DNA of 64,000 bases from an uncultured bacterium (GCA_937858275.1 CALLZK010000024.1:72745-136744), one strand, 5' to 3'; shown: positions 3,944-62,669, counted from the first letter of the stretch. Translations and numbers: made by a program. Notes: generated by a model from the sequence alone, not told the origin.

Positions 3944-5137
3944 TTAATAATTTTTTAGTTTGTCAGAAAATGGATGTTGTCTTATTTTTTCATGGGCTTT
4001 TGATTCAATTTGTCGAATTCTTTCTCTGGTCACACCAAATTTTTTACCAACCTCTTCTAGTGTATGCTGAATACCGTCAACCAAACCGTGCCTAAGTTCA
4101 AGAATTTTTCTTTCTTTTTCAGATAAATCACTCAAAATATCTTTTACTTGCTCTCTTAAAATAGCATGAGAAGCATCTTGATCTGGTGAAGAAATTCCGT
4201 CATCAGCCAAAAAATCACTTAGGGTAGATTTTTCATCTCCCTCATCACCAATCGGACTTTCAAGCGAAATTGTGCTTTGATCAATTTTTTCAATAGTATA
4301 AATTTTTTCAATTTCAAGTCCCATTTCAATAGACATTTCTTCTGGCATTGGTTCTCGTCCAAGATCTTGAGAAAGCCTTCTAAAAACTTGTTTGTATTTT
4401 GCAATAGTTTCAACCATGTGAACCGGAACACGAATAGTTCTTGACTGATCAGCCAATGCTCTAGTTATGGCTTGTCTTATCCACCAAGTTGCATAAGTAG
4501 AAAATTTGTAACCTTTAGTCCAATCAAATTTATCGACCGCCTTGAATAGTCCAATATTACCCTCCTGTATCAAATCAAGTAAAGTCAAATCAGCACTTCT
4601 TCCAACATATTTTTTGGCGATTGAGACAACCAATCTCAAATTAGCCCTAGCAAGAAGATTTTTTGCTTCTTCATCACCAGCTTCTATTCTCTTTGCCAAT
4701 TCCCTCTCTTCTCCAGCCACGATCAGTGGGTATTGTCCAATTTCTTTCAAATACATTTGAATTGAATCATATTGTGATGCAGATCTTCCAGAAAGATATT
4801 TTTTTACATCTTCTAACTCGTCTTTGACTTCCAAAAATCCTCCGCCGTCAAGAACATCAACACCTGCATTTTCTAATTTCTCATAAAATTCAGACAAAAG
4901 AGTGACATCGGTTTCAATATTTGGAAATTCTTTTAAAATCTCGTCGTATGTCACAAAACCTCTTTCTTTACCCTTATCCAAAAGTTTGTTAATTTTTGTT
5001 TCCGTATCTTCTTTCTTGTTTTTTTTGGAAACTGGTATTTTTTCTTTTTTGGTTTTGGTCTTTTTATTTACCTTATTATTGATAACTTTTTTGGAGCTGA
5101 TTTTTGATTTTTTAAATAATTTTTTATTTTTGGACAT
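3944..5137 (-). CDS. rpoD: RNA polymerase sigma-70 factor RpoD
   Basis: Region 2 motifs [18 protein letters not shown] and [16 protein letters not shown]. Region 4 motif [20 protein letters not shown]. Lys-rich N-terminus. Confidence 0.95.
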
Positions 5138-10586: not shown

Positions 10587-13500
10587 TTAATCCTTTTTTT
10601 CTTCTTCATCTTGTTTTTCAGCATGCTCTATATCAATGTCCAAACCAAGTCCTCTCATGTTATTAACTAATACATGGAAAGATGCTGGAATATTTGCTTC
10701 GGTAATAGGTCTTCCTTTTACAATCGCATCAAATGCAGAAGATCGACCAACAATATCATCTGATTTATAAGTCAGCATTTCTCTAAGTGTGTGTGCTGCT
10801 CCGTGACCCAAAAGTGCCCAGACTTCCATTTCTCCAAATCTCTGTCCACCATTTTGAGCTTTACCGCCAAGTGGTTGTTGTGTAATAAGTGAATAAGGTC
10901 CAATTGATCTCATGTGTATCTTGTCTTCAACCATGTGATGTAATTTCATCATATACATATATCCAACCGATATATCTTGTTCAAATTTTTCTCCAGTTCT
11001 ACCATCATACAACGGCATTTTTCCAGTTTCAGAAAAACCAGCTTCTTTTAATTCTTGTCTTATTTCTTCAGTAGTTGCACCGGCAAATGCTGGACAAATA
11101 GCTTGATAATTTAAAGAATTTGCAGCTAATCCAAGATGCAATTCTAAAATTTGACCAAGGTTCATACGACTTGGAACTCCAAGTGGTGTCAAAATTATAT
11201 CTACAGGTGTTCCGTCTTCTGTATATGGCATATCTTCTGCTGGTAAAATTTTTGATATAACACCTTTGTTTCCGTGTCTTCCAGCCAATTTGTCTCCGAC
11301 ACTAATTGGTCTTAGTTGTGCTATTTCAATATGAATTCTTTTTATAATTCCAGAATCTAATTTGTCTCCATTTTCACGAGAAAATATTTTTACCCCAACA
11401 ACCCTACCCCTCAAACCACCCTCGGCTCTTTTTGAAGAATCTTTTACATCTCTTGATTTGTCTCCAAATATTGATCTCAAAAGTCTTTCTTCTGGTGTTA
11501 ATTGTGTTTCACCTTTTGGGGTAATTTTTCCAACCAAAATATCACCCGGCCTAACTTCAGCACCGATTCTAATTATTCCGTCCTCATCTAGATTTTTTAA
11601 TCTTGAATCTCCAACATTTGGAATATCAGAAGTTGTTACTTCTGGACCAAGTCTTGTGTCACGAACATTCACAACAACCTCTTCCATATATATTGATGTC
11701 AAAACATCATCTTTTACAATTCTTTGAGATAAAATAATAGCATCTTCATAGTTTGATCCAGACCAAGACATGAAAGCAACTAAAAGATTTTTACCCAAAG
11801 CAATTTGTCCATTATCACTTGTTGTTGTGTCAGCAAGCAAATCTCCTTTTTTGACCCTATCTCCAACATTAACAATTGGTCTATGGCCGAAAACGGTAAA
11901 GCTGTTTGTTCTTCTTAGATTATCAAGTTCATAATCTGTATTTTTGCTTTTTCCAGTATTTATAGAAATCTTTCTAGCATCAACAAATTCAACAACACCA
12001 GCTTCTTCAGCTCTTATAACTCTGTTAGAATATTTTAAAGCTTCTTCTTCTCTTCCTGTAGCAACTAATGGTGCTTCAGTTTTCAAAACTGGCACAGCTT
12101 GTTTTTGCATGTTGGATGCCATCAGTGCCCTGTTTGCATCGTCATGATCAAGAAAGGGAATCATAGATGTTGCAATAGAAAATGCCTGATTTGGGGCAAC
12201 ATCGATAAAATCAACTTCTGTATTTTTTATAACATTTGGCATTCCATGCATACGGACAGTAATATATTTTTCAACAAAATTATTATTTTCATCTATTTTT
12301 ACAGCAGCATGAGCAATTGCATATTTTTCTTCTTCATGAGCATTCATGTATACAATTTGATTTGTAATTTTTCCATTTTCAACTTTTACATAAGGTGTTT
12401 CTATCATTCCGTATTTATTTGTTCTTGCATAACAAGACAAACGAAGAATCAAACCGATATTTTGTCCTTCTGGGGTTTGGATTGGACAAACTCTTCCGTA
12501 ATGAGATGGGTGCACATCACGAACTTCAAGTCCAGCTCTTTCTCTTGAAAGTCCTCCCGGACCCAATGCTGAAACTGTTCTCAAACTCTCTATTTCAACA
12601 AGCATGTTTTCTTGTTGTAAAAATTGAGATAGTTGATTTGTTGTAAAAAATTCTTTAATTCTGGCCTGAAGTGGTCTTGCGGTGACAAAGTTTGCCGGCA
12701 AAGTATTTGAATTATCAATTGTGGACATTCTATTTTGAATGTTTCTTTTCATTTGTGCCAAACCGACTCTAACTTTTTGTTGTAGTAATTCACCAACAAA
12801 TCTTACTCTTCTTGAACCCAAATGATCAATATCATCAGCTAAAGCATCTGGATTATGATTTAATTCAACAATGTGAGAAATAATAATTGCAATATCTTCT
12901 TTGTCTATGTTTTTTTTCTGCAATGCTTTTTTGTCTGTTGGTAAACCAAATCTATTATTAAATTTGAATCTTCCAACTTCTGACAAATCATATCTTTCTT
13001 CTGACAAAATAGAGTCAACAAACTCTCTTGCATTTTCAAGATTAATCAAATCTCCGTCTCTTAATCTTTTATAAACATCAAGATATGCAACATCAACTTC
13101 TTTTACAGAATCTTTGGCTAATGTTTTTTTGATAGCATCTATTGCTTTTTCTTTACCCTTAAATAAATTTAAAATATCTGAATCTGTATGTGCTCCCAAA
13201 ACTCTTAAAAATGTTGTGGCCAAAAATTTTCGATTTCTGTCTATTCTGACATATACAACATTGTCTTGATCTGTTTCAAATTCTATCCAAGCACCTCGTG
13301 ATGGAATAATTTTTGAACCAAACAAAATTCGTCCCCTGATCAAGTTTGTTGTGAATAACACACCGTATGATCTAGCCAATTGTGGCACAATAACTCTTTC
13401 GACTCCGTTTATAATAAAAGTACCGTGACGAGTCATGATTGGAAATTCAGTCAAAAATATATCTTGCTCTTTTTGTGTTCCCAAAACTTTATTTATAAGT

Positions 13501-13811
13501 TTTGCCCTAACCTTTAGAATTGCTTCGTATGTTAGATGATTAAATCTAGATTCTTTACTTGAAAGTTTTGGATCTTCAAAAATTAAATCGCCAAATTGCA
13601 ATTCATATTTTTTACCAGTGTAATCTTCGATTGAAGAAAATTCCTTGAAAACTTCTTTTAGACCGTCTTTCAATAATGCATTGAAAGATTCAATTTGTCC
13701 TTCAAAAAGATTTGGAAGTTCTAATGCTGGTTTTTTATATTTTGAAAAATATTTTTTTTCTCTTTGACCAACGGTCAACCCATCATCTTTAACAATTTTT
13801 GTTGACTTCAT
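10587..13811 (-). CDS. rpoB: DNA-directed RNA polymerase beta subunit RpoB
   Basis: 1074 aa with conserved beta-subunit blocks (GPGGLSRERAG, NMQRQAVP-like, RFGEMEVWAL). Confidence 0.97.
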   Translation of the reverse strand: MKSTKIVKDDGLTVGQREKKYFSKYKKPALELPNLFEGQIESFNALLKDGLKEVFKEFSSIEDYTGKKYELQFGDLIFEDPKLSSKESRFNHLTYEAILKVRAKLINKVLGTQKEQDIFLTEFPIMTRHGTFIINGVERVIVPQLARSYGVLFTTNLIRGRILFGSKIIPSRGAWIEFETDQDNVVYVRIDRNRKFLATTFLRVLGAHTDSDILNLFKGKEKAIDAIKKTLAKDSVKEVDVAYLDVYKRLRDGDLINLENAREFVDSILSEERYDLSEVGRFKFNNRFGLPTDKKALQKKNIDKEDIAIIISHIVELNHNPDALADDIDHLGSRRVRFVGELLQQKVRVGLAQMKRNIQNRMSTIDNSNTLPANFVTARPLQARIKEFFTTNQLSQFLQQENMLVEIESLRTVSALGPGGLSRERAGLEVRDVHPSHYGRVCPIQTPEGQNIGLILRLSCYARTNKYGMIETPYVKVENGKITNQIVYMNAHEEEKYAIAHAAVKIDENNNFVEKYITVRMHGMPNVIKNTEVDFIDVAPNQAFSIATSMIPFLDHDDANRALMASNMQKQAVPVLKTEAPLVATGREEEALKYSNRVIRAEEAGVVEFVDARKISINTGKSKNTDYELDNLRRTNSFTVFGHRPIVNVGDRVKKGDLLADTTTSDNGQIALGKNLLVAFMSWSGSNYEDAIILSQRIVKDDVLTSIYMEEVVVNVRDTRLGPEVTTSDIPNVGDSRLKNLDEDGIIRIGAEVRPGDILVGKITPKGETQLTPEERLLRSIFGDKSRDVKDSSKRAEGGLRGRVVGVKIFSRENGDKLDSGIIKRIHIEIAQLRPISVGDKLAGRHGNKGVISKILPAEDMPYTEDGTPVDIILTPLGVPSRMNLGQILELHLGLAANSLNYQAICPAFAGATTEEIRQELKEAGFSETGKMPLYDGRTGEKFEQDISVGYMYMMKLHHMVEDKIHMRSIGPYSLITQQPLGGKAQNGGQRFGEMEVWALLGHGAAHTLREMLTYKSDDIVGRSSAFDAIVKGRPITEANIPASFHVLVNNMRGLGLDIDIEHAEKQDEEEKKD

Positions 13812-17693: not shown

Positions 17694-17721
17694 TTGACAA
17701 AATTAAATAAAGAAATAATAT
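17694..17721 (+). promoter_or_regulatory. Predicted promoter TTGACA-16-TAATAT for the small Cys-rich gene
   Basis: TTGACA at 17694-17699 and TAATAT at 17716-17721. AAGGAG Shine-Dalgarno at 17746-17751, 7 nt before the GTG start. Confidence 0.45.
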
Positions 17722-17758
17722 ATTTATTTGAACCAGAACAAAAGAAAGGAGATTTGTA

Positions 17759-18040
17759 GTGAAAAAGCAATATTGCAGGAACAGAAACAAAAACGGGCAA
17801 CGGTGCTCTGGAAAAATAAATCACAGCATCGTTATTCCGATCAAGAAACGAATTCGAACAATTATTGCCGGTTGTCCGTGTGTAATCTGCGGTCTTGTGC
17901 ACTGTTTTAAGACCGGTCGTGTGGCAATTGATTTTGAACATGGTCGAATTTATCACAGACCAAAAATCAAAAAACAATTGCCGAAAAAAGGAATACGTTT
18001 TTGCAGACAGAAAGGGGGTTACAAATACGGTAACATATAA
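17759..18040 (+). CDS. Small highly basic Cys-rich protein (93 aa), function unknown; compositionally atypical gene
   Basis: GTG start with a strong Shine-Dalgarno. Seven Cys including the CPCVICGLVHC cluster. Local GC is about 40-48% against about 25% flanking. Own promoter and an intrinsic terminator. Confidence 0.5.
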   Translation: MKKQYCRNRNKNGQRCSGKINHSIVIPIKKRIRTIIAGCPCVICGLVHCFKTGRVAIDFEHGRIYHRPKIKKQLPKKGIRFCRQKGGYKYGNI

Positions 18041-29655: not shown

Positions 29656-29739
29656 GCGCAGATGGCAGAGCGGTCAATTGCACCAGACTGTAAATCTGGC
29701 GCCCTAAGGGCTACGGGGGTTCAAGTCCCTCTCTGCGCA
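29656..29739 (+). tRNA. tRNA-Tyr (anticodon GTA), type II with a long variable arm
   Basis: Acceptor stem GCGCAGA/TCTGCGC, anticodon loop CTGTAAA, variable arm GCCCTAAGGGC, T-arm GGGGGTTCAAGTCCCTC, discriminator A. Confidence 0.85.
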
Positions 29740-29803
29740 CAAAAAATAAATTGATTAGTTCTACACTGAATGAAATTTTTCGTTTTATTATTGAAAAAAA
29801 TAT

Positions 29804-29833
29804 TTGACAATAGCATATTTTATATGTTATAAT
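29804..29833 (+). promoter_or_regulatory. Promoter TTGACA-18-TGtTATAAT driving island gene 29906-30430
   Basis: Near-identical (about 85% over 33 nt) to the promoter at 38706-38735. It is followed by a 9-bp palindromic hairpin (29842-29864) and an AAAGGA Shine-Dalgarno. Confidence 0.55.
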
Positions 29834-29905
29834 TATTTATAGATTCAAGAATTCATCTTGAATCATTGTTTTTAAAGTTGGTAAAACCGACAGAAAGGAT
29901 GAGAT

Positions 29906-30430
29906 ATGGTAAACAAAAAAATCATATTTTTTGTAAGAAACAACATCAAGATAATTTCGATCACATTGGTGTTGTGCATGTTCTTTGGTATCTTGCTTGA
30001 GAACATGAGAAATCGCCAGCAGTATCTAGAGATTCTGCTGGATGGTGGACGACCGGTGGTATGGTCAGTTCACCCGTGGAATTTTTGGGCAGTAAAAACC
30101 CATAATTCCAACTTCGGTCACCGCTGGATTGAATCCACAGTGATCGTAGAAATTGACATTATAAATTCCAAAAATCGCCAGAAATTGCGAGAGTTGGAAT
30201 TTATAAAGGCCCTTAATGAATTGTTGATTTCCGAAAGGAAATTAAATAAAATGATGGGCCTACCGCCAACAAAAAAAGTTGGCGGTGAAAGAGTTCGACT
30301 GGCAGATGTGCAAGTCGAACAAACCGTGGTCGGCCTAAGCTCTAACGAGTTGGCCACAAGAAAAATCAGAATGTTTCTTGCAGAAATGCAAGACACAAAC
30401 AAAGTCGGGGGAATCGTAATACCCCGATAA
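29906..30430 (+). CDS. Hypothetical membrane-anchored protein (174 aa); GC-atypical island gene
   Basis: One N-terminal TM helix. About 52% GC in a sampled 60-mer. Bounded by a strong promoter and a perfect 9-bp-stem terminator. Confidence 0.55.
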   Translation: MVNKKIIFFVRNNIKIISITLVLCMFFGILLENMRNRQQYLEILLDGGRPVVWSVHPWNFWAVKTHNSNFGHRWIESTVIVEIDIINSKNRQKLRELEFIKALNELLISERKLNKMMGLPPTKKVGGERVRLADVQVEQTVVGLSSNELATRKIRMFLAEMQDTNKVGGIVIPR

Positions 30431-30438
30431 AGAACTTT

Positions 30439-30476
30439 AGACCCCGGCAATTTATTTTGCCCGGGGTCTTTTATTA
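30439..30476 (+). terminator. Rho-independent terminator (AGACCCCGG...CCGGGGTCT followed by a T-run)
   Basis: A perfect 9-bp GC-rich stem, a 13-nt loop, then TTTTATTATT. Confidence 0.8.
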
Positions 30477-30593
30477 TTGAAACAACTAATCCCTATTCAA
30501 CAAATCTAAAACGCGGAATTTCTTTCCCTTCGAAATTAATCATCTCAAAAAACATTTTTTTGAGATTTTCCAGGTTTTATTTCCATAATATTT

Positions 30594-33269
30594 TTATACC
30601 CCAACAACAGAATTTTCTGTAAAGCTAGAAACTTTTTTTCCTCTTTTAACATCAAAAACAAATTGATTATTTTTGTGATCCACCGTAACCACATCTCCAT
30701 CTGCGAGATTTGATTTTATAATAAGCTGGGCTAATGTGTTTAGTATTTTATCTTGAATTAATCTCTTTAGGGGTCGTGCTCCGTAATGAGGATCGTAACC
30801 ATCTTTTGCCAAAATAGAAATAGCATTTGGTGAAATTTTCAAACCAATTCCCTTTTGTTCTAATCTTTTTCTAACTTCATCTAATTGAATATCGGTAATT
30901 TTTTGAATTGAATCCTGACTTAAAATATCAAAAATAATTATGTCATCCAAACGATTCAAAAATTCCGGTCTAAAATTATCTTTTAGTGATTTCATAACAT
31001 TTTGTTTTGCATCTTGATATTGAACATTTGCTGTTTCACCAAAAGAAAATCCAATTTTTTCCATTTTATCAATATACTCTGCTCCAATATTTGAAGTCAA
31101 AATAATTATTGAATTTTTGAAGTTAACCAAACGACCTTTTGCATCAGTCAATCTTCCATTATCCAAAACCTGCAACAAAATATTGAAAACTTCTGGGTGA
31201 GCTTTTTCAATTTCATCAAATAAAATTACAGAATACGGCCTATGACGAATTGTTTCTGTTAAGGTACCAGAATCCTCGTGTCCAACATATCCAGGAGGTG
31301 CTCCAATCATTTTTGAAATAGAATGTTTTTCCATATATTCTGACATATCAACACGAATCAGGGCTTTGTCGTCATTGAACATAAATTCAGCCAATGCTTT
31401 TGTTAATTCTGTTTTACCAACCCCAGTTGGACCAAGAAATATAAAAGATCCGATCGGACGATTTGGGTCAGCAACACCGGCACGAGAACGACGAATTGTA
31501 TCTGCGATTTTGTGAACGGCATTATCCTGGCCGATAATTCTTTTTTTCAAATCATCTTCCATTCTAGATAATTTTGTGGCTTCTTCTTCAAGCATTTTTG
31601 AAACAGGAATACTAGTCCAACGAGACACAACAGAAGCTATGTCTTCTTCGGTTATTTCTTCTTTCAAAATTTGTCTAGAGCTTTGTAACTGCTTTAATCT
31701 TTTTTCTTTTGATTTTAAATCTTTTTCAAGTTGCGGAATCAGACCGTAACGAATTTCTGCCGCTTTTGTTAAATCAACTGCTGATTCAGCACTTTCAGCA
31801 TCAATTCTGGCTCTTTCTAATTTTGATTTTAAATCTTTTATGGCAACGATTGTTTCTTTTTCATTCTTCCATTTTAATTCTAATTCTCTGATTCCCTCTT
31901 TCAAATCAGCAACATCTTTTTCAATCTCTTTTAATCTTTCGGAGGTTTTCTTTGATTTTTTTGATTCATTTTTTAGGGCCTCTCTTTCTATTTCTAATCT
32001 TGTAATTTTTCGACGGGTATTTTCTAATTCTGGAGGCATGTTTTCTAAAGAAATTTTTAATGTTGAAGAAGCCTCGTCAATTAAGTCTACAGCTTTATCT
32101 GGTAAAAATCTGTCTGTTATATAACGGCTAGACAATTCAACAGATGCCACAATTGCATCATCTGAAATTCTTACTCCGTGATACAGTTCATATTTTTCTT
32201 TTAATCCTCTCATTATGGAAATTGCATCTTCGATAGATGGTTCATTTACATGAACTGGTTGAAATCTACGAGTCAGGGCAGAATCTTTTTCAATATATTT
32301 TTGATATTCTTTTAGAGTTGTTGCACCAATAACTTTTATCTCTCCTCTTGCCAATGCTGGTTTTAACATGTTTGAAGCATCCAAAGACCCTTCTGATGCA
32401 CCGGCACCAGAAAGTGTATGAATTTCATCTATAAACAAAATTATTTTCCCCTCAGCAGCAATGGCTTCTTTTATTATTTTCTTTAAGCGATCTTCAAATT
32501 CACCACGATATTTTGTTCCGGCGACTAATCCGCCAAGATCCAAACAGACCAATTCTCTATCTTTTAGAGATTCTGGAACATCACCTTGTGAAATTCTAAG
32601 TGCCAAACCTTCGACTATTGCTGTTTTTCCAACCCCAGCCTCCCCTATCAAAATAGGATTATTTTTGGTTCTTCGAGATAAAATTTGAATTACACGATTT
32701 ATTTCCTGATCTCTTCCAATAACCGGATCTAATTTATTTTGAGAAGCTTTTTCGGTAAGACTTTGTGTATATTTTTTTATAGACTTATAACTTTTTGGGG
32801 ATTTTTCAAAATCACTTTTACTATTTCTAAGATCGTTTAGAATTTTTAAAACCTGAGATTTGTCTATTTTAAAAGTTTCTAAAATTTCTTTTGCGGAACT
32901 TCTAATATCAAAACATGCCAAAAACAAATGCTCTGTAGAAACAAAATTATCTCCCAAAGAACTCGCAATCGTATTTGAATGTTCAATTATTTGAGCAAGT
33001 TCTGGCACCAAATACATTTGAAAAGACGGCGACAAAACTTCTCTGCTTTCCAGATTATCTATTGCATCAAATAATGTTTCTGTTAATAAAACAGAGTCTA
33101 CTCCTATTTTATCCAAGATAGAAGAAACAATACTTTCCTCTTGTGCAACTAAAGCAGTCAATAAATGATTTGGATTAACATGATTTTGACCTCTTTCTAT
33201 AGCAAATTCATGAGACTGTTTTATGGCCTCTCTTGCTTTTGCTGTGAAATTTTTGAATGGTGGCATCAT
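30594..33269 (-). CDS. clpB: Chaperone ClpB (AAA+ disaggregase)
   Basis: Clp_N repeats, two AAA+ modules (GEAGVGKTA and GPTGVGKTE), and a coiled-coil M-domain between them. Confidence 0.95.
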
Positions 33270-37867: not shown

Positions 37868-37949
37868 GCCCGGGTGGCGGAATTGGTATACGCGCACGAC
37901 TTAAAATCGTGTCCCTTACGGGTTGCGGGTTCGACCCCCGCCCCGGGCA
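37868..37949 (+). tRNA. tRNA-Leu (TAA), type II
   Basis: Acceptor stem GCCCGGG/CCCGGGC, anticodon stem-loop CACGA-CTTAAAA-TCGTG, long variable arm, T-arm GCGGGTTCGACCCCCGC. Confidence 0.85.
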
Positions 37950-38007
37950 CAAATAGAAAGTTTTAAAATTACAAGTGCACTCGCACGACTTTCTATTCAA
38001 ATATTTG

Positions 38008-38050
38008 CGTGTCCCTTACGGGTTGCGGGTTCGACCCCCGCCCCGGGCAC
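38008..38050 (+). repeat. 43-nt direct duplicate of the 3' portion of tRNA-Leu(TAA) (identical to 37908-37950), exactly 100 bp downstream
   Basis: CGTGTCCCTTACGGGTTGCGGGTTCGACCCCCGCCCCGGGCAC occurs twice. The intervening 57 bp contains a 10-bp inverted repeat AATAGAAAGT/ACTTTCTATT. Confidence 0.85.
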
Positions 38051-38061
38051 AATAAAATAAA

Positions 38062-38192: not shown

Positions 38193-38273
38193 GCGCGGGT
38201 GGTGAAATGGCAGACACGCTTGCCTTAGGAGCAAGTGCCGCAAGGCATGGAGGTTCAAGTCCTCTCCCGCGCA
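38193..38273 (+). tRNA. tRNA-Leu (TAG), type II
   Basis: Acceptor stem GCGCGGG/CCCGCGC, anticodon stem-loop CTTGC-CTTAGGA-GCAAG, long variable arm, T-arm GGAGGTTCAAGTCCTCT. Confidence 0.85.
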
Positions 38274-38626
38274 CATAAAACAAAGGAGGAGGATGCGAAA
38301 GCATTCTCCGACTTTTGTTTTACAAGCGGAGAGGGCTTGAAAGCCGGACTGAGTAAAAAGAGCGGAGCGATTTTTTACGAAGGAGGCGGGGTCGCGAGTT
38401 TCGAGGCAAAGCCGAGAAAATTTGTGACCAAGTCCTCTCCCGCGCACATAAAACAAAGGAGGAGGATGCGAAAGCATTCTCCGACTTTTGTTTTACAAGC
38501 GGAGAGGGCTTGAAAGCCGGACTGAGTAAAAAGAGCGGAGCGATTTTTTACGAAGGAGGCGGGGTCGCGAGTTTCGAGGCAAAGCCGAGAAAACTTGTGA
38601 CCAAGTCCTCTCCCGCGCACATAAAA
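38256..38626 (+). repeat. 173-bp tandem repeat, about 2.1 copies, each unit beginning with the last approximately 19 nt of tRNA-Leu(TAG)
   Basis: Units at 38256-38428 and 38429-38601, plus a partial third copy at 38602-38626. The full units differ by a single T/C. CAAGTCCTCTCCCGCGCACATAAAA recurs three times. Confidence 0.9.
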
Positions 38627-38705: not shown

Positions 38706-38735
38706 CAATTTCTGATTGACAAAACAGTATTTTAT
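38706..38735 (+). promoter_or_regulatory. Promoter TTGACA-18-TGtTATAAT driving the SPFH-like island operon
   Basis: Same sequence family as 29804-29833. Followed by a 9-bp hairpin (38752-38776), a second hairpin GCCGGACAATCCGGC, and an AAAGGAG Shine-Dalgarno. Confidence 0.55.
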
Positions 38736-38848
38736 ATGTTATAATTAAAGATAGAAAAATAACTCTTTAACCTGTTGTTAAAGAGATTGAACATTGTCAG
38801 AAAGTAAGTTTGATAAAGCCGGACAATCCGGCAAAAGGAGAATGAGTT

Positions 38849-39997
38849 ATGAGTGGATTTTTGATAGTATTTGTGTTTGGCGGGTTAATCTCGGCATTTC
38901 TGGCCATTGTGGCCGGAGCATCTTCTTTTGGAATGTCAAAGGAAGATCATGACAGCGAGGTTCCGCAAGGGCCTCGAATGTTATTCCACTTCCTATCGGC
39001 GATAATTGTCTTTGCAATAACGGTGATTTTATCTTCATTATTGATTGACAAGGTGGGCCTGTTTAACAGACCACTTCCCCTTATTTTGGGGGTAATGTTT
39101 GCCGGAGCGGTTTTCAAGATTCCAGCATTCTACACAGAAGTTGCTGGAAACACCGCCAAAGTCGCGGTTCCGCTTTTTGGTGGAACAATTGGCGACAAGG
39201 GAATTGTTTTGTACCGAATTTTTCTATCTGGTTTCAAATGGAAATTTCCATGGGAAACCTTTGGGAAAGACTCGTCAGTTGACTTGGAGAAAGATACAAC
39301 AATTTCCAAGTCGATTGAGGTTGAGTTTGCTGACGGTATAGGCAAACTAACATGGGTCGCAACTATGCAACCCAACAAAAACAAAATCCAGCAACTTTTA
39401 AACATCGGAATAAATCCCGATGAAAGAAAAAAAGTGTTGGAAGCAGTTTTTACATCATTCTTCAATTCACTCATCGGTGTTGCCTGCAAAGGTGAGAAAA
39501 TCGATGAGATTATGGGTGATCGTAAAAAAATCATCCAAAAGGTCGTTGGAGACAAAGCATCCAACGGTCTGGAAGAAAAAGAACTGATGTACGGCATCAG
39601 CCTTAACTCGTTTGTGATCAGTGATATAGATTACTCAAGCGAGGACAGAAAGAAAGCCAAGGAACAGATGGCTGTTGCAGACATTTTTATGCAAACAGTT
39701 GTTATGATCCTAAAAAGACGAGGTTTTACCGATGAGCAAGTCGGTAAAATTGGAAAAAAAGGTGGAGTTCCGAAGAAAGAATATGCCGAGGCGGTTCGCC
39801 TTGCCAAGATTCTTTCGGACGAGGTCAATGCCTGGGATATCAATATATCGGGTATTGAAAATCTGCAAAATCTTCACCTACCAGCAGATGCCGCAAGAAT
39901 GATGTTTGCTGCTGGTGGCCAGAAAACTGGTCGCCAAGGAAATCAACAAAAACCGTTTTCCGGGCAAAAATCCGGGAACGGGAAAGGGGAAAAATGA
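38849..39997 (+). CDS. Membrane protein with three N-terminal TM helices and an SPFH/Band-7-like (stomatin/flotillin/HflKC-like) domain; Gly/Gln-rich C-terminal tail
   Basis: The hydrophobic N-terminus is followed by a domain that follows the SPFH consensus pattern, ending in ...YGISLNSFVISDIDYSSEDRKKAKEQMAVAD. About 40-53% GC. Confidence 0.55.
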   Translation: MSGFLIVFVFGGLISAFLAIVAGASSFGMSKEDHDSEVPQGPRMLFHFLSAIIVFAITVILSSLLIDKVGLFNRPLPLILGVMFAGAVFKIPAFYTEVAGNTAKVAVPLFGGTIGDKGIVLYRIFLSGFKWKFPWETFGKDSSVDLEKDTTISKSIEVEFADGIGKLTWVATMQPNKNKIQQLLNIGINPDERKKVLEAVFTSFFNSLIGVACKGEKIDEIMGDRKKIIQKVVGDKASNGLEEKELMYGISLNSFVISDIDYSSEDRKKAKEQMAVADIFMQTVVMILKRRGFTDEQVGKIGKKGGVPKKEYAEAVRLAKILSDEVNAWDINISGIENLQNLHLPADAARMMFAAGGQKTGRQGNQQKPFSGQKSGNGKGEK

Positions 39998-40479
39998 GCT
40001 CAACATCACAAACCCAAAAGACAATAAACAAAATAGTCTTTTGGGTAACAATGTTGGCGGTGGTGATAATCATCATCGTCTTCATGCCCAAGTGTGGCAG
40101 TGATCGTAATTCGGGCAGTTGTGCGATACCAGTGTCCTCATCGGACACGAAAACCGCAAAAACAGTGCCGAATTACGGTCCAGCCATCATAAGGTTGGGC
40201 CCCGGGGAAATCACGGACATAATCCTGACGAGGGGCGAATTCTTTGAGTGGAATTGCCCCACTGATGGATTCAAAATCCGAGTGTTTCAAAGAAACGGAA
40301 TGCCTTTCGTTTCCAGAAACACTGATCCGGGTGGATGGGTTTTGAGGATATCGAATTGCATTCGATATCAATGCTGGTTGAAAGATATAACCAGCATGTC
40401 GGTACATGGGATACAATTTGGTGTACCGACCAATCTGTCTTCTGGTGTAGAAATTCAATACACCAGAAACAGAATGTAA
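39994..40479 (+). CDS. Hypothetical membrane-anchored Cys-containing protein (161 aa); possible NfeD-like partner of the SPFH protein
   Basis: Its start overlaps the previous stop (ATGA). One TM helix followed by a beta-rich region with 5 Cys. About 53% GC. Confidence 0.5.
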   Translation: MSSTSQTQKTINKIVFWVTMLAVVIIIIVFMPKCGSDRNSGSCAIPVSSSDTKTAKTVPNYGPAIIRLGPGEITDIILTRGEFFEWNCPTDGFKIRVFQRNGMPFVSRNTDPGGWVLRISNCIRYQCWLKDITSMSVHGIQFGVPTNLSSGVEIQYTRNRM

Positions 40480-40516
40480 AACACACCGTTTCTAACGGTG
40501 TGCCACATGCAATAAC

Positions 40517-40556
40517 CAAGACCTCGTTGCCAACGCACGAGGTCTTTTCTTTTTTA
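40517..40556 (+). terminator. Rho-independent terminator (AGACCTCGT...ACGAGGTCT followed by a T-run); a second hairpin lies at 40482-40503
   Basis: A 9-bp stem followed by TTTTCTTTTTT. It lies between the convergent island operon and gpmI. Confidence 0.7.
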
Positions 40557-40563
40557 CAAAATA

Positions 40564-43873: not shown

Positions 43874-44776
43874 ATGTTATCGAAATTTCAAAAAATCAAT
43901 GTTTTTTCTGAAATTATAATTTTTGTTATTATAATTTTATCCATCATTTACATCATATTTACTCAAACAAACAACAAAAAAGAAATTACGAGTTTGAATG
44001 AGAAAATAAATTCTCAAAATGAAAGTCTTTCCGAAAAAATTACCAATATTGAAAATATTTTAATAGAGGCCACAGATCAAAATTTATCTATCAAAGAAGC
44101 ATTAGAGCAAGCAGAAAAAAAATCAGAGTCTCTGTCAAAACAATTTGATAGAGTTAACAGAAATGTTGGAGAATTAGAAAAGATTACCAAAACAGACAAA
44201 GAGTTATTACAAAAATACTCAAAAGTATATTTTTTGAACGAACATTACAGACCTGCTGATTTAAAAAACATAAAACCAGAGTTTACTTTTAATAGACAAA
44301 GAGAGTATCAAATACATTACGAAGTTTGGCCGTATTTACAAAGTTTATTAGAAGATGCAAAAGACGACGGGCTAAATTTGTTAGTTATTTCTGCATTTAG
44401 ATCATTTCAAGATCAAGCAATTTTAAAAGGTAATTATGTTGTAACATATGGAGCCGGAACAGCAAATCAATTTTCGGCAGATCAGGGGTATTCAGAACAT
44501 CAACTTGGTACCGCGGTTGATTTTACAACACCAATTGTCGGAGCAACATTTTCTGGATTTGAAAAAACAAAAGAATATGATTGGCTTACAAAAAATGCCC
44601 ATAAATATGGTTTTATACTCTCCTATCCACCAAACAACAAATATTATCAATATGAGCCCTGGCATTGGAGATTTGTGGGAGTTAGACTCGCAACCGATTT
44701 GTACAAAGACAAAAAATATTTCTATGATTTAAGCCAAAGAGAAATAGACGAATATATAATTTATTTATTTGACTAA
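43874..44776 (+). CDS. VanY-like D,D-carboxypeptidase (peptidase M15B) with an N-terminal TM and coiled coil
   Basis: Zn-ligand motifs SEHQLGTAVD and EPWHW. Confidence 0.8.
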   Translation: MLSKFQKINVFSEIIIFVIIILSIIYIIFTQTNNKKEITSLNEKINSQNESLSEKITNIENILIEATDQNLSIKEALEQAEKKSESLSKQFDRVNRNVGELEKITKTDKELLQKYSKVYFLNEHYRPADLKNIKPEFTFNRQREYQIHYEVWPYLQSLLEDAKDDGLNLLVISAFRSFQDQAILKGNYVVTYGAGTANQFSADQGYSEHQLGTAVDFTTPIVGATFSGFEKTKEYDWLTKNAHKYGFILSYPPNNKYYQYEPWHWRFVGVRLATDLYKDKKYFYDLSQREIDEYIIYLFD

Positions 44777-44825
44777 AAAAAATAACTTTGTATTATAAAC
44801 CCAAAAGCACAAAGGAGAGTTAAAA

Positions 44826-45245
44826 ATGAAAATTTTGATAATAGACGATAATAGGTCGGTTGCTGAAAAGATGAGTAAAATTATAACCGATTTTCTCATC
44901 GGGGCCGAAGTTACAGTTTGTTCAATGTCTTACAGTCCAGATCAAAGTCCGAGACTTAGGATTCCGGACATTGATACTGTCCAGAGACTTATCGAGAGTC
45001 ACGACCTAATCTTGATAGATCACAATCTTGGACAGATTGAGTTTGATGGTTCAATTTTGGCAAGATTTTGTCAAAAAAATGGTAAATTTCACATAGGAAT
45101 TTCTAGCCATTCATCTTTTTGCAAGACAAATTTTATGGCCAAACATGAACTAGATATTCATCCGGCATTTGTTGAAGCATTCGAAAACATTTTGGCAGAT
45201 ACGATTGCCGAAATGAAGAAAATTCAATTATCCAAAATTAGATAG
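44826..45245 (+). CDS. Orphan response-regulator receiver (REC) domain protein with no output domain
   Basis: MKILIIDDN and the phospho-acceptor context DLILIDHNL. About 45% GC. Own Shine-Dalgarno and terminator. No histidine kinase nearby. Confidence 0.55.
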   Translation: MKILIIDDNRSVAEKMSKIITDFLIGAEVTVCSMSYSPDQSPRLRIPDIDTVQRLIESHDLILIDHNLGQIEFDGSILARFCQKNGKFHIGISSHSSFCKTNFMAKHELDIHPAFVEAFENILADTIAEMKKIQLSKIR

Positions 45246-46190: not shown

Positions 46191-46394
46191 ATGCAAAAAG
46201 GACAAATTGTTCGAATCATGGATAAAGGCTACGGCTTTATAAAACATGAAGGTAGTTCAAAAGATCTTTTTTTCCATTCAAACGAACTTCAAAATGCTCA
46301 GTTTGACGACCTAAAAGGTGGTGAAAATGTAGAATTTGAAATCGCTGAAGGAAAAAAAGGACCTCAGGCTATCAAAGTAAGTGTTATAAAATAA
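46191..46394 (+). CDS. Cold-shock protein (CspA family)
   Basis: 67 aa. RNP1-like KGYGFI and RNP2-like FFHSNE. Confidence 0.9.
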   Translation: MQKGQIVRIMDKGYGFIKHEGSSKDLFFHSNELQNAQFDDLKGGENVEFEIAEGKKGPQAIKVSVIK

Positions 46395-62108: not shown

Positions 62109-62465
62109 TTATTCTTCCGATTTTTGAGGAATGCTTGTTTTGATAGCAAATATCAAAACAAGAGAAGCAATTACAATATTGCCAAACTGTTCTATATTTA
62201 TACCAAAAATTCCGCCGCTTGCCATGGTCCCAATCAGAAAAAATGTGACAACGAACCAATTGGTTCGATCAAGCATTCTGTCCAAAAATACGGCGATGAG
62301 TCCCACGATCCACAAAAAGAAGCACAGGACCGATGTCGTTTTCTCCAAATTACTTGGAATTTGAAAAAATCCCAAATAAATGCTTGTTTCTACAAAAAAA
62401 ACGATTGCTAAAACGAGAAAAAATCCCGCCCGAGCAAATTTCAGTCCGATTCTCTCTTTTTCCAT
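62109..62465 (-). CDS. Hypothetical small polytopic membrane protein (118 aa)
   Basis: ORF with 3-4 predicted TM helices. No recognisable family. Confidence 0.45.
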   Translation of the reverse strand: MEKERIGLKFARAGFFLVLAIVFFVETSIYLGFFQIPSNLEKTTSVLCFFLWIVGLIAVFLDRMLDRTNWFVVTFFLIGTMASGGIFGINIEQFGNIVIASLVLIFAIKTSIPQKSEE

Positions 62466-62669
62466 AATTTCCCACCTTTCTGTGTGTTGTTGTTAAAAAA
62501 CTTTTCAGTCTTAAATACTAACATACTATATATATTTTGTCAAAATAATATATTTGATGAAAAATTTACAGAAAATTAAAATTATTAATTTCAAACATTT
62601 AACAAAGTACATATTTTTAAAGATATTTTTTGCTTTTTAAAATAAAATTTGATATTATCTTATTTTGAT

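Follow-up and report, generated by a model that had tools for sequence, protein, structure and literature searches.

Why should two separate GC-rich islets of one AT-rich bacterial chromosome carry nearly the same promoter and 5' leader? The window, that is, the whole 64-kb stretch of DNA analysed, belongs to a member of Candidatus Paceibacterota (CPR) and has a GC content of 31%; features lie on the plus strand unless the minus strand is named. Islet 1 (0.8 kb) begins 63 nt past the 3' end of tRNA-Tyr(gta) (29656-29740, identified by ARAGORN and Rfam), and islet 2 (1.9 kb) follows tRNA-Leu(tag) (38193-38274), the last gene of a Cys/Leu/Lys/Leu tRNA cluster. The neighbours of the islets are housekeeping genes, including ClpB, ThrRS, sortase, a short IF-2, RbfA, iPGM and enolase. 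The window sequence, both promoters included, recurred in four independent assemblies, indicating that the two promoter copies are no assembly artefact. Comparison contigs were retrieved through ClpB homologues (89, 81, 81, 77 and 77% identity to the window ClpB), and the backbone flanking both islets was syntenic across all of these relatives. The contigs from relatives are designated L011 (sister species), L012, L014, L140, L141 and L142, of which L140 and L141 have 77% ClpB identity; L143 and L144 belong to the same genome as the window and lie beyond its left and right ends, respectively.

It was observed that the site at 29804-29835 (TTGACAATAGCATATTTTATATGTTATAATTA) and the site at 38716-38747 (TTGACAAAACAGTATTTTATATGTTATAATTA) were identical at 28 of 32 positions and had the exact 20-mer TATTTTATATGTTATAATTA in common. 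When the comparison was anchored at the -35 box and extended to the start-site region ATAGA, 33 of 40 positions were identical, and the stretch of the spacer adjoining the -10 box matched at 12 of 12. The predicted islet-1 promoter (29804-29833) consists of the -35 box TTGACA (29804-29809), an 18-nt spacer, TG at 29825-29826 and the -10 box TATAAT (29828-29833), and the predicted islet-2 promoter (38716-38745) has the same -35 box, spacer length, TG and -10 box. Both therefore have perfect hexamers (6/6 and 6/6), TG at -15/-14 and TATGT before TATAAT; within 25-45 kb they were the only promoters with 12 of 12 hexamer positions and a TG. These results agreed with the earlier note, which had claimed near-identical TTGACA-18-TGtTATAAT leaders at these positions. 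In its consensus string, the letter count of the variable block was wrong, and the string found no match until corrected. By every sequence criterion, both would be sigma70-type promoters with an extended -10 element (TGn, or TRTGn in low-GC Gram-positives). A review reported that TGn promoters tend toward 18-bp spacers and that AT-rich spacers increase activity (PMC2613000). The likely reader of both is the primary sigma factor RpoD, encoded at 3944-5137 on the minus strand and containing regions 1.1-4 (Pfam Sigma70_r1_1, r1_2, r2, r3 and r4).

The first alternative is that both genes arrived independently at the best sigma70 promoter in an AT-rich genome, the extra identity being due to chance and composition. 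A scan for the frame alone (TTGACAA-N12-TATGTTATAAT) in viral contigs returned at least 120 loci with, among the matches listed, at least 111 distinct spacers, whose columns were close to background (about 0.3 chance match per position). Since this frame occurred in at least 111 unrelated phage promoters with random spacers, the hexamers, the 18-nt spacing and TATGT represent a generic strong-promoter design, which fixes 18 of the first 32 positions and leaves 22 free in the 40-nt block. In addition, native promoters of this genome often carry TGTTATAAT, and exact matches to TTGACA-N6-TATTTTATATGTTATAAT occurred in the unrelated L001, L002 and L003 at about the chance rate for generic promoters (two genome matches, one metagenome match and no viral match in public collections). 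Against convergence, 15 of the 22 non-frame positions were identical between the islet promoters, with a P of about 5e-4 to 7e-4 calculated from one pair of sites. Three perfect TTGACA-N16-19-TATAAT sites were found in the window against 0.18 expected, and the third, which drives the cold-shock (csp) gene at 46191-46394 (CSD domain), had a spacer and leader unrelated to those of the islets. Furthermore, the islet-1 promoter was nearer to the islet-2 promoter of the same genome than any islet-2 orthologue was (29, 28, 24 and 24 of 40). These results, together with the leader alignment described below, make convergence an unlikely explanation of the whole likeness; part of the spacer identity could nevertheless be convergent, given AT-rich DNA and selection for strong promoters.

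Several candidate relatives of the shared promoter were rejected. L001 (a Clostridiales MAG) and L002 (a low-GC contig with the promoter after tRNA-Trp) are probably chance matches to the generic frame. L003 presented a striking cassette, but its leader showed no homology. As a separate observation, rplB and rpsS are separated in L003 by a cassette (CEPX01150511.1, 376-1000) running antisense to them, in which an orphan TM-protein gene with GC3 0.66 is preceded by a perfect TTGACA-18-TGTTATAAT promoter and followed by a terminator. A looser viral scan turned up TATTTnnTATG spacers in the promoters of unrelated phages; these promoters were not accepted as relatives because phage spacers were otherwise random in the frame-only scan. 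Between the islets themselves, the promoter block was the sole BLASTN match (E = 7.5e-7 in a pairwise search), and tblastx and blastn revealed no coding similarity outside it; islet 1 was therefore no longer regarded as a possible decayed copy of the SPFH-like gene of islet 2.

The likeness extended into the leaders. The alignment of the leaders alone, after the -10 box, scored 37 compared with 18.5±3.4 for shuffled sequences (z = 5.5; 0 of 500 shuffles reached the score), and the two leaders were collinear as far as the CAGAAAG element. Thus, the similarity did not disappear outside the hexamers, as the earlier note had allowed that it might. A hairpin with a 9-bp stem and a 5-nt loop follows each promoter, as had been claimed: GATTCAAGA-ATTCA-TCTTGAATC at 29842-29864 in islet 1, located 1-3 nt from the predicted 5' end, and CTCTTTAAC-CTGTT-GTTAAAGAG at 38763-38785 in islet 2. 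These first hairpins occupy non-homologous positions in the leader alignment. Both islets also have a second small hairpin immediately 5' of the Shine-Dalgarno (SD) sequence, within 29877-29899 in islet 1 (GTTGG-TAAAA-CCGAC at 29877-29891, then the SD AGAAAGGA) and 38818-38840 in islet 2 (GCCGG-ACAAT-CCGGC at 38818-38832, then the SD AAAGGAG at 38834-38840). A shared element followed by an AAAGGAG-type SD had been proposed for both leaders. Both elements exist, GACAGAAAG at 29889-29897 and the SD-like GTCAGAAAG at 38797-38805; in islet 1, GACAGAAAGGA proved to be the SD itself, and in islet 2, GTCAGAAAG is collinear with the islet-1 SD in the alignment and lies 45 nt 5' of the real SD.

Both leaders folded better than shuffled sequences (z about -3; islet 1, z = -3.0). 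Comparison of the first hairpin of islet 2 with that of L011 showed that the loop CCTGTTG was kept, that four of the nine stem pairs were changed on both sides and a fifth had become a wobble, and that all nine pairs remained intact. The stem sequences differ among the three leader hairpins, with compensatory changes, which argues for a structure acting as RNA rather than a DNA operator common to the copies. The islet-2 and L011 hairpins start 10-15 nt from the predicted 5' end, so the classic role in 5'-end protection is uncertain there, and their conserved loop CCUGUUG may be recognised in some other way. No comparable leader hairpin was present in L012. Rfam searches at permissive thresholds with both leaders and the X element (described below) gave nothing credible, and neither leader had a match near the gathering score. 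The first hairpin was rejected as an attenuator or terminator, because a T run follows it only in islet 1 and the reading would be no shared feature; an upstream ORF read in the islet-2 leader was likewise discarded, showing no conservation in L011. Separately, ATAACTC at 38759-38765 of the islet-2 leader is exactly complementary to GAGTTAT at 38844-38850, a segment reaching into the start codon. In the minimum-energy fold, the two are paired, which would mask the islet-2 start region; the pairing was not conserved in L011 and is thus probably incidental.

Islet 2 contains an SPFH/Band-7-like membrane protein gene (38849-39997; 382 aa, GC3 0.42), a partner gene (39994-40479; 161 aa, N-terminal TM helix, GC3 0.51) and an intrinsic terminator predicted at 40520-40556 (GACCTCGT...ACGAGGTC and a T run). 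The 382-aa protein matched Pfam Band_7 with 26.8 bits against a gathering cutoff of 23.6 (E = 6e-6) and was the only one of its group to pass; Pfam returned no match for the L012 and L014 orthologues. The 161-aa partner weakly matched the 189-aa partner in L014. An SPFH-like gene lies directly after tRNA-Leu(tag) in five species, namely that of the window, L011 (2-709), L012 (3648-4850), L014 (2279-3370) and L140 (3205-4143), with a protein identity of 21-38% compared with 77-89% for ClpB. The promoter of this gene matched at 12 of 12 hexamer positions in all five species, always with a spacer of 18 nt, and in L011, L012 and L014, no other 12/12 promoter occurred within 13-22 kb. The spacers of the orthologous promoters diverge with distance, suggesting that the spacer sequence per se is under no strong constraint. 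The GC3 of the SPFH-like gene was 0.42 against a host median of 0.195 in the window, and 0.49/0.27, 0.46/0.22, 0.60/0.40 and 0.37/0.24 in the other species, which is about 0.2 above the host in five species of differing GC content. GC3 was not raised in the highly expressed native genes FtsZ and csp. Repeated allele replacement, biased gene conversion or another cause may account for the constant offset. Collectively, these results indicated that islet 2 is no recent import and has long been resident in the clade, where it is syntenic and evolves fast. Because a perfect promoter was retained while the protein diverged to this extent, the operon may serve a highly expressed function at the surface or membrane that is under diversifying pressure in these episymbiont-type bacteria.

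Islet 1 contains one gene (29906-30430) encoding a 174-aa protein with an N-terminal TM helix, followed by an intrinsic terminator predicted at 30440-30476 (GACCCCGG...CCGGGGTC and a T run). The GC contents at the three codon positions (0.45/0.30/0.47) fit a coding sequence in which the third position is raised. The gene is an ORFan: a word-indexed search and a full HMMER search against 1.84 billion representative proteins returned only the protein itself, and AlphaFold on the single sequence gave a pLDDT of 43. L012, L014 and L140 have nothing between ClpB and tRNA-Tyr, and L011 and L142 have another gene there, so islet 1 is a lineage-specific insertion. Its promoter carries the window-specific spacer state TATTTTATATG, which differs from the L011 state. 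The earlier description of the genes as foreign-looking thus calls for qualification, islet 1 being such an insertion and islet 2 an old resident. Searches of the islet proteins against PHROGs, PADLOC and viral loci revealed no phage-family, defence-family or viral relatives, and the word-indexed protein search gave self-matches only.

The two islets belong to a larger set of compositionally atypical units. Native genes of the window had a GC3 of 0.14-0.27 (median 0.195), and seven genes in six transcription units stood cleanly apart: 17759-18040, 26361-27062, 29906-30430, 38849-40479, 44826-45245 and 62109-62465. Each of these six units had a TTGAC[AT] -35 box and a -10 box compatible with it. 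Among the 29 native units with promoter room, such a -35 box was found in three (Fisher p = 5e-5), or in four if csp, whose promoter overlaps the preceding gene, is counted. The motif is therefore not the generic promoter of native genes, most of which have only TGTTATAAT-like -10 regions. All six atypical units also have an AAAGGAG-type SD and a GC-stem terminator. The claim that related -35 regions precede other GC-atypical genes was thus confirmed, with TTGACAAAACA 5' of 26361-27062 and TTGACAAAAT 5' of 17759-18040. The latter is a Cys-rich gene of 93 aa (unit 17694-18040; GC3 0.37) with an TTGACAAAAT-type promoter, an SD and a terminator. The former, on the minus strand, encodes 233 aa (unit 26361-27094; GC3 0.32), has the -35 box TTGACAAAAC and a terminator, and is missing from the ThrRS-DnaE gap of L012. 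The unit at 44769-45245 encodes 139 aa (GC3 0.33); it combines a TTGACT-16-TATTAT promoter with an SD and a terminator. A third cassette of the same style lies at 62109-62543 on the minus strand, between tRNA-Glu and tRNA-Val and with terminators just 3'; it has the promoter TTGACAAAATATATATAGTATGTTAGTAT at 62543-62515, the SD CAGAAAGGTGG and a 118-aa multi-TM gene (GC3 0.37), and its promoter closely resembles the L011 form (TTGACAAAAT..ATAGTATGTTAGTAT). Comparison of the cassette proteins with Pfam, PHROGs and PADLOC gave no match except Band_7. Outside the window, 20 kb of this genome yielded no additional copy of the module and contained four more GC3-atypical genes without such a promoter; given these exceptions, the association of the -35 box with GC3 is not absolute.

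Further atypical loci were observed in the vicinity and in relatives. About 8 kb left of the window (L143, 1386-2114), a 242-aa gene of no known family with GC3 0.42 separates uvrB from uvrA; it shares their orientation and lacks its own consensus promoter. About 3.5-8 kb right of the window (L144), inverted repeats of about 160 nt (13364-13521 and 17797-17953; 93-96% complementary) flank a 4.3-kb GC3-atypical segment encoding a 1291-aa protein and an HTH protein, beside tRNA-Arg(cct). A called 128-aa gene in this region (GC3 0.51) overlaps a repeat arm and the tRNA and may thus be no real gene. In L140 (17112-19804) and L141 (10618-13310), the ThrRS-DnaE gap, where the window has its 233-aa gene, is occupied by a diversity-generating retroelement with bAvd and a reverse transcriptase, together with a gene of 196 aa whose GC3 is 0.57; no sequence similarity was found between this retroelement region and the 233-aa gene region.

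Signs of recombination were found at the tRNA 3' ends near the islets. Between tRNA-Leu(tag) and the islet-2 promoter lie two tandem 173-nt units (38256-38626), designated X, which are 99% identical and each terminate with 25 nt copied from the 3' end of tRNA-Leu. One X unit folds at -80 kcal/mol (z = -7.6), with the internal GCGGAGAGGGCUUG pairing with the tRNA-end copy. Its homologue in L011 (13363-13475) occupies the tRNA-Tyr site and terminates in a sequence resembling the tRNA-Tyr 3' end. X could be a miniature integrative element or a structured RNA of unknown kind; a viral scan with its core gave only chance matches to GC-rich coding DNA. Duplicated tRNA 3' ends were found at 38256, 38429 and 38602, and also at 37908 and 38008. 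At the last two positions, the 3' 45 nt of tRNA-Leu(taa) are exactly duplicated (37908-37952 and 38008-38052) around a 55-nt insert holding a 9-bp inverted repeat (ATAGAAAGT/ACTTTCTAT), which looks like an integration/excision footprint. The same tRNA cluster is an insertion hotspot in relatives (L011, 1904-5085; L014, 3625-5130; L140, 4784-5266), where its members are separated, depending on the relative, by a 3.2-kb block that includes a NUDIX gene, by a pilin-like gene or by a gene for an HNH endonuclease.

These observations bear on the second alternative, in which both cassettes were imported with their promoters from one donor pool, either a GC-richer relative or a mobile element using tRNA 3' ends. 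Such an origin would fit the position of both islets just 3' of tRNA genes with similar 3' ends, the copies of tRNA 3' ends that mark recombination at three tRNAs, the presence of X beside tRNA-Leu in the window and, in L011, at the tRNA-Tyr site, and the atypical GC3 of all cassettes. Patescibacteria are also reported to exchange genes mainly among themselves (PMC12455944). However, the islets contain only the 174-aa, 382-aa and 161-aa genes and no integrase or recombinase domain, and no tRNA-end repeat was found at their distal boundaries (near 30430-30600 and 40480-40560), the repeats bounding only the X units. The search results for phage, defence and viral relatives given above also count against import, and the synteny of islet 2 in five species, with a GC3 that tracks the host at about +0.2, is unlike a recent common donor. 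Because islet 2 and its promoter are old and islet 1 is new with the window-specific spacer state, copying within the lineage is favoured, and a joint import appears improbable.

The third alternative, that the spacer or the start-site ATAGA is an operator for a repressor or activator, or that the promoter is the target of an alternative sigma factor, draws on the 12/12 spacer identity, the 5-3-5 palindrome CATAT-TTT-ATATG read in the islet-1 spacer, the occurrence of TTGACAAAA in four of the six atypical units as well as in L011 and L140, and a spacer slightly above optimal length, but is very unlikely, since the palindrome is lost in islet 2 and no spacer dyad is conserved, the spacer varies freely among orthologous promoters, the hexamers are of the primary sigma factor type, no DNA-binding gene lies in or beside the cassettes, the hairpin stems differ between copies and covary without a common operator, and no Rfam cis-regulatory family matched either leader.

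We therefore favour, with a probability of roughly 60%, the reading that both sites descend, as related copies, from a single promoter-leader module and that the cassettes which they head are self-contained and moron-like. The earlier note had offered either a duplicated mobile module or a binding site for a dedicated regulator; similarity that passes the hexamers into spacer and leader, and is stronger between the islets than among orthologues, supports the first half, and the drifting orthologous spacers without a conserved dyad speak against the second. The likeness is real and non-random, and its molecular basis is ordinary. The proposed module would consist of a near-perfect sigma70-type promoter with a TRTGn extended -10 element, stem-loops 1 and 2 and a strong SD, and would head units of promoter, leader, gene or genes and terminator for GC3-atypical, mostly membrane proteins of no known family. 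It would be ancestral to the SPFH-like operon after tRNA-Leu(tag) in this Paceibacterota clade, and a copy, most likely made inside this lineage, would now drive the lineage-specific ORFan after tRNA-Tyr. The similar 3' ends of tRNA-Tyr and tRNA-Leu, between which the X element also moved, may have aided the copying. From the sequence, we infer the direction of copying as well as promoter activity, start sites and hairpin function. RpoD holoenzyme would be expected to fire strongly without an activator, with region 4 on the -35 box, region 3 on the TG and region 2 on the -10 box, which are the textbook assignments of sigma contacts. The leader stem-loops would act on RNA through stability or processing, the SD would give efficient translation, and the terminator would insulate neighbouring genes.

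A single simple recent duplication is insufficient, as the core is very similar but the leader is more diverged: in the core promoter, islet 1 is more like islet 2 than L011 is, whereas in the leader, it is less so. Gene conversion or selection on the core promoter would be needed to reconcile the two. A bolder extension, to which we give only slight credence, is that the module is the conserved head of an undescribed class of Paceibacterota cassettes, which have their own promoter, are GC3-rich, lack an integrase, relocate or are rebuilt at the 3' ends of tRNA genes, perhaps using X as a recombination or processing module, and keep new or fast-evolving membrane proteins under strong constitutive expression.

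Almost nothing is known experimentally about transcription signals in CPR/Patescibacteria. For one CPR genome, the present results suggest a rule in which native genes mostly use -10 or extended -10 promoters and accessory atypical genes carry full consensus -35/-10 promoters with their own terminators, which would make the full promoter a cheap sequence marker for accessory cassettes. The points of interest are this association of the -35 box with GC3 in a CPR bacterium, the long-kept promoter of the SPFH-like gene and the signs of tRNA-3'-end recombination beside both islets.

Compared with known systems, the islets resemble tRNA-linked islands of tyrosine integrases in their location 3' of tRNA genes, the duplicated tRNA 3' ends nearby and the variation of insertion content among relatives; they differ in measuring only 0.8 and 1.9 kb and in lacking an integrase. 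In operator-in-spacer promoters of the MerR-like or repressor-controlled kind, the spacer contains a regulatory site, whereas no dyad was conserved among the orthologous promoters here. Stem-loops at the 5' end that stabilise mRNA, and the SD-like STAB-SD, are known from E. coli ompA, B. subtilis aprE and B. thuringiensis cryIIIA. Islet 1 shares with them a stable stem-loop near the 5' end, and islet 2 an SD-like GTCAGAAAG far from the start codon, whose function here is putative; the offset of the islet-2 and L011 stem-loop from the predicted 5' end and its conserved loop set it apart from the 5'-end stabilisers. Phage morons are independent promoter-gene-terminator units with deviant composition (PMC3594210). 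The islets lie outside any prophage between housekeeping flanks, have no PHROG match and, for islet 2, occupy one site across species, unlike morons; in common with them, they have their own promoter and intrinsic terminator by sequence, a deviant composition (GC3 of 0.42-0.51, the median being 0.195), a small protein of accessory or membrane type and, for islet 1, a presence that varies among close relatives. The closest match of the promoters themselves is the sigma70/sigmaA extended -10 type, with the same TTGACA and TATAAT, TG within TATGT and an 18-nt AT-rich spacer. They depart from its norm in that most native units here have no -35 box, the full form being nearly confined to the GC3-atypical cassettes and csp, and in that the two islet copies share spacer and leader beyond what RNA polymerase contacts need.
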